A DNA stretch of 64,000 nucleotides, taken from NCBI GenBank assembly GCA_964596175.1, contig CAZQTH010000001.1, forward strand, positions 3,464-67,463, written 5' to 3'. Numbering within the stretch: the stretch's first letter is position 1; each line of letters starts with the position of its first letter. Both the position numbers and the translations under genes were made by a program. Origin of the DNA: an uncultured Clostridium sp. (GTDB lineage Bacteria > Bacillota > Clostridia > TANB77 > CAG-508). The notes beneath the pieces are model-generated. The model ran no database searches. It was not told where the DNA came from and saw only the letters and a program-made list of their open reading frames with translations. Positions 52,612 to 54,042 of the stretch are shown in pieces.

Positions 52612-52655
52612 TGGCGTAGGTGAGAGGGTTCGAATCTTCGCACCGATTGCTCCAC
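52612..52655 (-). repeat. partial tRNA-Ser 3' fragment (T-arm plus acceptor 3' strand); probable att-site duplication
   Basis: 38 of 41 nt identical to the 3' end of tRNA-Ser(GCT) at 53953-53993, then diverges; same orientation. Confidence 0.7.
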
Positions 52656-52681
52656 ATTTTCTCCCATTAAGCCTATTTTTA

Positions 52682-53320
52682 TTAATTTTCGCTATATATT
52701 TTTTTCTGTTCTTTTATATAATATTCTTTTATTTTTTGCCAGTCATAATCAATAAAAACTTTTGGCAAATTTTCATCTTCTGCATCTTCAAAATATGCTA
52801 AACTTTGTATTATATGTGCATAATTAATTTTATTTCCTTCATATTTCTTATCTAACATTTTTAATATATCTGTTATTGTTATATTAAAATTATTACAAAT
52901 ATAGTATAAATCAAAAAAGTCTTTCTTTGTTCCTCTTTGGCTTATTGCTATTAGTTTCATTATTGCTATATCTTCTATACTTGCCAAGTATAAACCTTTT
53001 ATTTCTTCTGCTTCTATTTTGTCTGCCACTAAATTGTTTTTAAAATATAAAAATGTTAGTTGTACTCCATTCAAAATAGCATGTACTGTTCCTTTTCTAC
53101 ATACAGTAACTTCTAATTCTCCTATTGTTTCTAACTCTTGTATTAATAAATTTTCGTCAAATTCTGTTTGTATAAAAAAGTCAAAATCAAATGACTCTCT
53201 TATTCCTGTTTGCAATGCTAATGCTGTTCCTCCTGCTAAATAATAATTCCTTAAACTTATTGTTTCTACTACTTTTTCTAATATATTGTTTCTGTTTTTA
53301 TCAATTACTTCCCAATGCAT
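52682..53320 (-). CDS. nucleotidyltransferase AbiEii/AbiGii-family toxin (type IV TA / abortive infection)
   Basis: LAGGTALALQ nucleotidyltransferase motif and DUF1814-like length and architecture. Confidence 0.75.
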   Translation of the reverse strand: MHWEVIDKNRNNILEKVVETISLRNYYLAGGTALALQTGIRESFDFDFFIQTEFDENLLIQELETIGELEVTVCRKGTVHAILNGVQLTFLYFKNNLVADKIEAEEIKGLYLASIEDIAIMKLIAISQRGTKKDFFDLYYICNNFNITITDILKMLDKKYEGNKINYAHIIQSLAYFEDAEDENLPKVFIDYDWQKIKEYYIKEQKKIYSEN

Positions 53321-53322
53321 AA

Positions 53323-53610
53323 TTAACCTCCAAATGTATAATTCATATTTTCATTATTTATATAATACTGCATTTCTTCTTTTTTTAAATCATATACATT
53401 TCTTAAAAAGTTCGCTGTTATTGGTGTTAATCTTCTACTTGTTTTTGCTGTTTCTATAATTTGTTCTCTTGTATAAGTTCTTTTTAACCATTTTATACTT
53501 TCCCAATCTCCTTCACAAAATAATCTACTTATTATATATTTCATATTCTTTTTTATATCTAGTTTTTCATATTCTGTATCCCAAAAATATTTTCTTAATT
53601 CAATTGGCAT
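53323..53610 (-). CDS. small partner protein of the AbiEii toxin (putative antitoxin; family uncertain)
   Basis: 95-aa ORF 2 nt upstream of the toxin, operonic; not a canonical AbiEi wHTH by eye. Confidence 0.45.
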   Translation of the reverse strand: MPIELRKYFWDTEYEKLDIKKNMKYIISRLFCEGDWESIKWLKRTYTREQIIETAKTSRRLTPITANFLRNVYDLKKEEMQYYINNENMNYTFGG

Positions 53611-53952
53611 TTTTGTACCTCCCTATATATTATATCATATTTTAAATTAAAATCTACATTTCATATAAATATTTATTTATTTTATTAATCTAAGCCTTTT
53701 AAAACTCTTTAAAATCAATTTAAAACCTCTTTTATATCCTATTCAATATAATTATACTAAATTTATTTTGTATTTATTTCTTTAATTATTTTCTCTATAT
53801 AACTATTTACTTCATTAATTGCTTCTACTACTTTTTTGTATCTAAATGTGTATACCAATTACTTGTTACTACTATTGTATTTTTTATATTTTAATGAAAA
53901 CAGTTTTTAAACAAAAAAATAGTATAAAGTTATAAAAACCTTATACTATTTT

Positions 53953-54042
53953 TGGCGTAGGTGAGAGGGTTCGAACCTCCGCGCCGATTGCTCGACCTAG
54001 CAGTTTAGCAAACTGCCCCCTTCACCACTTGGGTACACCTAC
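53953..54042 (-). tRNA. tRNA-Ser (anticodon GCT)
   Basis: GTAGGTG acceptor, long variable arm, anticodon loop TTGCTAA, T-arm GGTTCGAACCC, encoded CCA. Confidence 0.85.

Follow-up and report, generated by a model that had tools for sequence, protein, structure and literature searches.

A DUF6922-AbiEii toxin-antitoxin cassette between a tRNA-Ser(GCT) gene and its displaced 3' copy: a polymorphic insertion lacking an integrase gene in uncultured gut Clostridia

The tRNA-Ser(GCT) gene of an uncultured Clostridium sp. (GenBank assembly GCA_964596175.1, contig CAZQTH010000001.1, positions 3,464 to 67,463) is separated from a neighbouring type IV secretion system (T4SS) gene cluster by a 1.3-kb segment bordered on its far side by a partial copy of the tRNA gene. 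The window is the whole 64-kb stretch analysed (64,000 nt), to which all coordinates refer; its G+C content is about 27%. The segment holds two genes, for a DUF6922 protein and an AbiEii-type nucleotidyltransferase, presumed to form a toxin-antitoxin (TA) pair. Related loci fetched for comparison with the window carry L-numbers (L003, L054 and so on). They reveal the segment as a true insertion with presence/absence polymorphism, and the cassette has been exchanged horizontally between species. In the loci examined, the insertion has no integrase gene. The explanation favoured here, given about an even chance, is a selfish TA cassette that inserted with a long duplication of its target, with no integrase needed, and then spread by recombination. 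As the best reading, the finding fits a known but little-studied kind of insertion described for restriction-modification (RM) modules, RM and TA modules both being addictive. A displaced tRNA 3' fragment alone is not proof of an integrase event, and the case may be an instance of something broader: addictive two-gene modules whose arrival is accompanied by a long duplication of the target sequence.

Two tRNA-Ser genes stand side by side on the minus strand. The first gene of the pair, tRNA-Ser(TGA) (54103..54194; ARAGORN; Rfam RF00005, 53.5 bits), keeps its position in relatives and has no duplicate within the window. The second is the intact tRNA-Ser(GCT) gene (53953..54042, minus strand; ARAGORN and Rfam), whose 3' 44 nt (53953-53996) form the upstream repeat copy. 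A 41-nt segment of its 3' part is found again, save for three mismatches, at 52612-52652, in the orientation of the intact gene and 1.34 kb from it. Two matches to this segment occur in the window versus 0.00 expected (100 shuffles). Local alignment extends the downstream repeat copy to 44 nt, equivalent to tRNA positions 47-90 (52612..52655, minus strand). An earlier reading of the letters without database searches (the sequence-only reading) had reported this equally oriented copy 1.3 kb off, and ARAGORN, Rfam, the shuffles and the alignment bear it out. Since the three mismatches, as read from the sequence, disrupt two T-stem pairs, the copy is not a functional part of a tRNA. Together with the cassette tail it shows no unusual fold (z = -0.68).

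The downstream copy is longer in two related loci. In L054 and L075 it comprises 60 nt that correspond to tRNA positions 31-90 and reach from the anticodon loop to the CCA end, and is followed by a terminator-type hairpin. With the hairpin included, 107 nt align between both copies in L054, so that the repeat measures 44 nt in the window and 60-107 nt in L054/L075. Relative to these loci the window lacks about 76 nt, lost between a GAGCAA microhomology of the cassette tail and its counterpart in the tRNA variable arm. Judged from these alignments, the 44-nt copy appears to be a shortened derivative of the 60-nt copy, its start at position 47 being secondary.

Between the repeat copies only two genes are found, both on the tRNA strand, which confirms the gene content read earlier from the letters (an AbiEii-family toxin and a 95-aa partner; PF08843 and PF21956). 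The toxin gene (52682..53320, minus strand) encodes a presumed toxin of 212 aa, an AbiEii/MenT-type (DUF1814) nucleotidyltransferase matching PF08843 with 51.1 bits (cut-off 22.5) and AbiEii in PADLOC. Its residues G30-G31, D45/D47, K122, R129, K133-D134 and D137 are invariant or nearly so across relatives. A structure model with a predicted local distance difference test (pLDDT) score of 95 has its best fold matches in JHP933 (4ok0) and MenT1 (8an4/8an5). Pfam match, motifs and predicted fold together place the protein in the AbiEii/MenT (DUF1814) family. The gene directly upstream (53323..53610, minus strand) encodes the 95-aa DUF6922 protein (PF21956, 58.6 bits, E = 4e-16). It precedes the toxin gene immediately in every genomic context and in the majority of distant relatives, and is presumed to be the antitoxin. 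This partner has no match in NCBIfam or PADLOC, and the literature searched contains neither a mention of DUF6922 nor a described function. A single-sequence structure model of it reached a pLDDT of only 60 and was not used.

A non-coding leader (53611..53904, minus strand) precedes the DUF6922 gene and is 85.5% identical to that of L054 over 346 nt. It contains a conserved promoter/operator-like stretch, 'atgtagattttaat...tatgatataat', just upstream of the DUF6922 gene. The promoter-proximal part of the leader is also present in cassettes at other loci, L003 and L008. Between leader and tRNA lies an AT-rich hairpin with a U-run (53905..53952, minus strand; -14.6 kcal/mol, z = -5.4), the predicted terminator of the tRNA. 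It falls inside a block of 90% identity common to L054 and thus travels with the cassette leader. At the other end, a cassette tail of 26 nt (52656..52681, minus strand) leads from the toxin stop codon to the partial tRNA copy. The tail is common to L054, L075 and L091 and ends in GAGCAA. An extra stretch of about 107 nt (52504..52611, minus strand) follows the copy and has its own hairpin terminator (52558-52611; fold z = -4.8); no homologue of it was found in any fetched locus except from the same species. The original downstream flank begins beyond it, about 107 nt past the partial copy, with a hairpin resembling the terminator that natively follows tRNA-Ser(GCT) at empty sites (52458..52510, minus strand; z = -4.7). 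This segment is 90.6% identical to the post-tRNA sequence of L041, 72% identical to L012 over 134 nt and 90% identical to the sequence right after the partial copy of L054. A consensus terminator scan of the window hairpins returned nothing because they are AT-rich; folding confirms that they are real.

Insertion polymorphism was counted in 37 species with tRNA and pilin genes on one contig. In 30 of these the first pilin-type gene follows the tRNA directly, which is the empty site that the sequence-only reading had proposed to look for. The DUF6922-AbiEii pair occupies the site in four species, and three have other cargo: a HepT toxin, a TetR regulator with a membrane protein, or a cell-wall hydrolase. 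Four further contigs, which end before the tRNA, also have the pair ahead of the pilin genes. The partial tRNA copy is absent from all empty-site genomes (0/30), each of which holds the tRNA segment once. Wherever it does occur (window, L054, L075 and L005-7), the cassette is present too and ends right beside it.

The closest relative by housekeeping genes, L041 (ParB 96% identical), has an empty site. L054 is close to the window in AbiEii (94%) and DUF6922 (92%) and only 73% identical in ParB. At the nucleotide level, the window segment 54230-52647 is 90.4% identical to L054, whereas the ParB-DUF4446 region reaches 75% and the first pilin gene 68%. The exact ParB and AbiEii proteins of the window were encountered only on short contigs from one study. 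The earlier reading had named as its refutation an ancient pseudo-tRNA with the same neighbours and no polymorphism; as the insertion is polymorphic, this is not what the related genomes contain.

The tRNA-proximal junction is variable. Its distance from the tRNA is 17 nt in L059, about 60 nt in L091 and about 229 nt in L045, while the window and L054 have 47 nt plus the leader. At least four different left junctions are thus present at the tRNA site, where an island of the tRNA-gene (tDNA) type would have a shared one. Cassettes 81-90% identical to that of the window occupy the same site with no partial copy in L091-94 and L008-10. Directly after the intact first-clade cassette of L091 lies a remnant of a second-clade AbiEii gene (10687-10953; also L040 355-582), coding for the C-terminal 88 aa with 70% identity to L017; it indicates turnover or stacking of cassettes at the tRNA site.

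Other cargo was noted at the tRNA-Ser(GCT)/pilin junction as well. L017 has a HipA_C kinase gene (3945-4844) beside a second-clade cassette, L023 a HepT-like RNase (4826-5137), and L045 a YhgA/Rpn-like PD-(D/E)XK protein (4989-5912). The idea of a hotspot at this tRNA, put forward in the sequence-only reading, holds for the junction itself, with its AbiEii clades, HipA, HepT and YhgA; it fails for the accretion of the T4SS cluster. Several contigs start inside tRNA-Ser(GCT) (L020, L038, L061) or at tRNA-Ser(TGA) (L024, L034), and L108 has a run of N (4588-4760) at an insertion site of the L098 type. Such assembly breaks and gaps exactly at insertion sites fit strain-level variation.

The same cassette family, with toxin identities of 73-87%, is also inserted at three or more non-tRNA loci of the clade. 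It lies between YlbF and RecJ/RelA in L003, between BcrAD and a 111-aa gene in L095-97, and between a GerMN gene and a methyltransferase gene in L098-100. Direct repeats of local sequence abut the cassette ends at two of these three loci, with 61/64 nt identical in L095/L096 and 50/50 nt in L098/L099. The empty alleles L106-L114 contain the 50-nt tract of L098 only once. In L045, a 148-nt repeat that is not tRNA sequence borders a second-clade cassette near the tRNA. Distant metagenome relatives (33-66% identity) retain DUF6922 upstream of the toxin. Repeats within 350/300 nt of the cassette ends were counted in 9 of 46 non-redundant contexts of these relatives versus 2 of 69 controls (Fisher p = 0.004). 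They range from 25 to 112 nt, e.g. 37 nt in L151, 56 nt in L187 and 25 nt in L192. A previous control with pseudo-cassettes and 700-nt flanks was confounded by tandem pilin paralogues and replaced by this tighter one. Among 80 distant loci, four have any tRNA within 4 kb and none has one adjacent. Across the cassette family as a whole, the non-tRNA repeats measure 25-148 nt; long target-derived repeats exist at several cassette loci.

Besides, a low-complexity motif (AAAAATTCGAAAAAAATAGAAT...) was observed in several neighbouring intergenic regions (L098 11719-12075, L107 5630-5950). One copy of the AAAAATTCGAAAAAAATAGAAT motif is the tract duplicated around the L098 cassette.

Nobusato et al. 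are said to have described in 2000 an insertion with long target duplication of RM gene complexes. For RM modules this kind of insertion has been set out in detail: the module alone is inserted, the repeat exceeds 30 bp and is single-copy in empty genomes, and no mobility gene is present (Furuta, Abe and Kobayashi, 2010; PMC2853133). The same work takes a tRNA 3' half combined with an integrase as a sign of site-specific recombination. In both cases an addictive module has gone in by itself, unaccompanied by a transposase or integrase; the direct repeats around it, tens to hundreds of bp long, are single-copy where the insert is missing; and each locus has a repeat of its own length and sequence. 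The window insert, with 1.3 kb, two genes and no mobility gene, is a module-only insertion below the limit of 20 kb (PMC2853133). Its repeat is longer than 30 bp and single in empty genomes, and across loci the lengths vary (50, 64 and 148 nt in the clade, 25-112 nt in distant relatives). As these features match those of the RM modules, the tRNA duplication is read as a target duplication. Two differences remain. Long target duplication has so far been described for RM modules, whereas the cargo here is a DUF6922/AbiEii-type TA pair, and one of the targets here is the 3' half of a tRNA gene.

The mechanism of duplication, the spread by recombination and the activity of the toxin we infer as follows. 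A two-gene cassette with its own promoter, DUF6922 and the MenT/AbiEii-type toxin would enter the spacer between tRNA-Ser(GCT) and the T4SS genes. No integrase would take part, and the target, originally tRNA positions 31-90, would be duplicated, with a terminator-type hairpin after each copy. Owing to this duplication the intact tRNA gene would persist, with a dead 3' copy beyond the cassette. As the target overlaps an essential tRNA, events that left no intact copy would not have survived. In the window, the dead copy would later have been cut to 44 nt by a deletion between the two GAGCAA microhomologies. The block may then pass between species, most simply by homologous recombination, in which the conserved tRNA genes and the duplicated tRNA segment would provide the two homology arms. 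If it acts as MenT toxins do, the toxin would block translation through the addition of nucleotides to the 3' ends of tRNAs. DUF6922 would neutralise it, the addiction would resist loss of the pair, and phage infection may be aborted.

Systems of the AbiE/MenAT kind are TA pairs with a DUF1814 nucleotidyltransferase (PMC7450476, PMC10435456, PMC11541572). Their toxins of the MenT type add nucleotides to tRNA 3' ends (PMC7450476, PMC11541572), and MenT3 prefers tRNA-Ser (PMC11541572). The pair described here resembles them in its PF08843 match, its nucleotidyltransferase motifs, a predicted fold nearest to JHP933/MenT1 and the toxin as second gene of a two-gene operon. It differs in the short presumed toxin (212 aa) and in the partner, which is DUF6922 rather than AbiEi/COG5340 or a known MenA.

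Several points weigh against insertion with target duplication. We know of no molecular mechanism for such duplications. The hairpin beside the intact window tRNA resembles that of L054 and not that of the closest relative L041, so that the structure in the window was imported and not made in place. In the L054 repeat, the tRNA part is 58/60 identical and the terminator part only about 70%. From a single fresh duplication this contrast would be less expected than from an incoming copy of the attP type or from recombination at a later time. The repeat of L054/L075 starts at position 31 in the anticodon loop, a canonical crossover sublocation. The clade has two tRNA-Ser(GCT) alleles, with acceptor 3' strands CACCTAC and CATCTCC, and each partial copy has the acceptor allele of its own host; integrase, target-duplication and recombination models predict this alike. 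The repeat of L098 is of low complexity and dispersed nearby, and the control behind the repeat enrichment in distant relatives is modest.

A decayed islet made by an integrase is a serious rival, possible though on balance doubtful. Here, a larger element with a tyrosine integrase would have integrated in the anticodon loop of tRNA-Ser(GCT), its attP supplying the new tRNA 3' half. The integrase and most other genes would later have been deleted, leaving attL, the TA cassette and attR as a remnant resembling a cis-mobilizable element (CIME). Guarded by the TA pair, this remnant could be mobilised in trans by a related integrase. The sequence-only reading had regarded the tRNA duplication as the classic signature of site-specific integration at a tRNA 3' end and the islet as a remnant or a satellite. 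An intact tRNA with a displaced 3' fragment in direct orientation is indeed how Islander delimits a tDNA island, and the anticodon loop, where the fragment of L054/L075 begins, is the commonest crossover sublocation (PMC4383910). CIMEs that keep attL and attR after losing integration and transfer genes are an established concept (PMC5704250). The islet shares with both the empty sites in related genomes and, with CIMEs, the missing integration genes. In addition, the post-tRNA sequence travels with the cassette and a native-type terminator follows the partial copy, the acceptor stem of the copy is that of the host allele, and the tRNA part in L054 is by far the better conserved.

Integrative elements do use the tRNA-Ser pair. 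In the sample of L009 (9300-9400), only the final 13-17 nt of tRNA-Ser(TGA) are left, and all that would precede them has given way to foreign DNA with small genes, helix-turn-helix regulators and SHOCT and Mrr-type domains. In L008 and L010, with an AbiEii protein identical to that of L009, this tRNA site is empty, the gene being intact with DUF4446 and ParB upstream. The L009 junction resembles the attR of an integrated element. A search for its integrase via protein relatives yielded only a short relative, whose contig stops before the end of the element.

For the DUF6922-AbiEii islet itself, neither an integrase nor a remnant of one was found in any islet-bearing species. The islet contains none by Pfam, as had been read from the letters, and none is located in the 64-kb window or the cassette copies of the other species examined; within the window this result comes from Pfam scans and, for 18.8-30.6 kb, from synteny with L098. 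The integrase gene that a tDNA island holds inside is thus missing. Repeats are retained and mobility genes absent, as in a CIME, and nothing shows that mobility genes were ever present. No cassette relative closer than 35% identity was detected on phages, plasmids or viral contigs, and no viral contig has the 3' end of tRNA-Ser(GCT) in either allele, in collections incomplete for this clade. Neither a matching attP nor an autonomous element with the same attachment specificity was found among viral contigs, phages and plasmids. The failure to find an integrase or a parent element, the variable junctions and the non-tRNA repeats of the cassette family at other loci set the islet apart from tDNA islands and CIMEs. 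Close cassettes at the site that do without a partial copy (L091-94, L008-10), and others that start elsewhere, also disagree with classic integration, and a tRNA-specific integrase cannot make the long non-tRNA repeats at non-tRNA loci. Of the earlier claim of site-specific integration, a real and polymorphic insertion stands, while its origin by an integrase is doubtful in view of the non-tRNA repeats elsewhere, at least four left junctions and the failure to find an integrase or attP.

Insertion of the TA cassette with target duplication would, if confirmed, extend a poorly understood mode of gene movement from RM to TA systems, and the DUF6922-AbiEii family would offer many natural pairs of filled and empty sites for work on the mechanism. 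An unlikely further step is that DUF6922-AbiEii cassettes are minimal mobile elements entering intergenic DNA with target duplications of 25-150 nt. The mechanism would then be encoded by the cassette or recruited, e.g. tied to the polymerase-beta-type nucleotidyltransferase or to DUF6922. If true, long target duplication would be a general and mechanistically distinct mode of movement of both TA and RM modules.

It is very improbable that the partial copy is an old pseudo-tRNA or a remnant of tandem duplication unrelated to the arrival of the cassette. In prokaryotic genomes tRNA fragments are common (PMC9897764), and the copy is mutated and truncated, but it is found with the cassette at its end and in none of the 30 empty-site genomes. 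The fragment could also have a function: forming the 3' terminus of the toxin transcript, it would decoy or regulate a toxin whose target is the acceptor end of tRNA-Ser. It does follow the stop codon of the toxin gene on the same strand, ahead of the first hairpin terminator, and the preference of MenT3 cited above is for tRNA-Ser. Such a function is scarcely credible: cassettes 81-90% identical dispense with the fragment (L091-94, L008-10), its mismatches break the T stem with no significant fold, and it is eroding by deletion. Equally hard to credit is that islet and T4SS cluster form one integrative and conjugative element (ICE), or tandem elements accreted at the tRNA, for which their adjacency, the fast evolution of the T4SS proteins and a similarity pattern discordant with ParB could be adduced; in dozens of species the T4SS genes are flanked by the tRNA pair on one side and DnaJ/BcrAD on the other, and most species have them with no islet.

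The T4SS cluster (37689..52289, minus strand; Pfam) is located outside the insertion. It comprises four VirB2/TrbC-like pilin genes, PrgI, a TraC-like gene and a VirB4 ATPase, together with genes for a 933-aa membrane protein, a 275-aa protein, a cell-wall hydrolase of 1182 aa and a 461-aa protein. A scan anchored on VirB4, with one genome per species, retrieved at least 567 related loci among 600 candidates. Synteny was checked in the best 80 of these (VirB4 identity 79-90%). Where contigs suffice, the order ParB, DUF4446, tRNA-Ser(TGA), tRNA-Ser(GCT), pilins, PrgI, TraC-like gene and VirB4 is constant and continues with the genes of the 933-aa protein, the 275-aa protein, the hydrolase and the 461-aa protein, followed by DnaJ and BcrAD. 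Neither an integrase nor a relaxase (Pfam) nor a terminal repeat was detected in the cluster, and the patchy presence typical of an ICE is lacking as well, given the synteny of the best 80 loci. The relatives are metagenome-assembled genomes of uncultured gut bacteria ('Clostridia bacterium' or 'Clostridium sp.'). The cluster is a stable, clade-wide trait of uncultured gut Clostridia. Serial accretion of mobile DNA at the tRNA, as the sequence-only reading had suggested for it, is not supported, since the cluster is syntenic across the clade and lacks integrase, relaxase and terminal repeats; the further tRNA-Ser fragment expected at its far boundary exists neither in the window nor in the 80 related loci. 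Reading the cluster as a mobile island should be given up. Right of the tRNA genes follow a 503-aa membrane protein, DUF4446 and ParB (Pfam) and, by size of the open reading frames and synteny with L008, ParA, RsmG, MnmG, MnmE, Jag, YidC and RnpA. This side is the origin-proximal region of a Firmicute chromosome.

A VirD4/TraG-type coupling-protein gene lies at 865-2478, about 35 kb from the T4SS cluster (PF02534, E = 6e-78), a distance that also speaks against one ICE. Similarity across the tRNA pair is discordant: L041 has 96% identity in ParB, 81% in VirB4 and 52% in the TraC-like protein, and L011 has 84%, 90% and 69%, respectively. Recombination near the tRNA genes may exchange the T4SS block between species; alternatively, diversifying selection may act on its surface parts. 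The pilin genes include tandem paralogues (50093-51392): two 119-aa VirB2-like genes lie in 300-nt repeat units sharing 94% identity, and another copy reaches 60%. An AAA_14/DUF4143 ATPase gene (35176-36471) between DnaJ and BcrAD in the window is absent in L041. A different DUF4143 ATPase (L005 1120-2433) is encoded inside the 2.5-kb islet version of L005-7. A common origin of the two was considered and rejected, as they are unrelated beyond the family level. DUF4143 ATPase genes seem to be mobile cargo, too.

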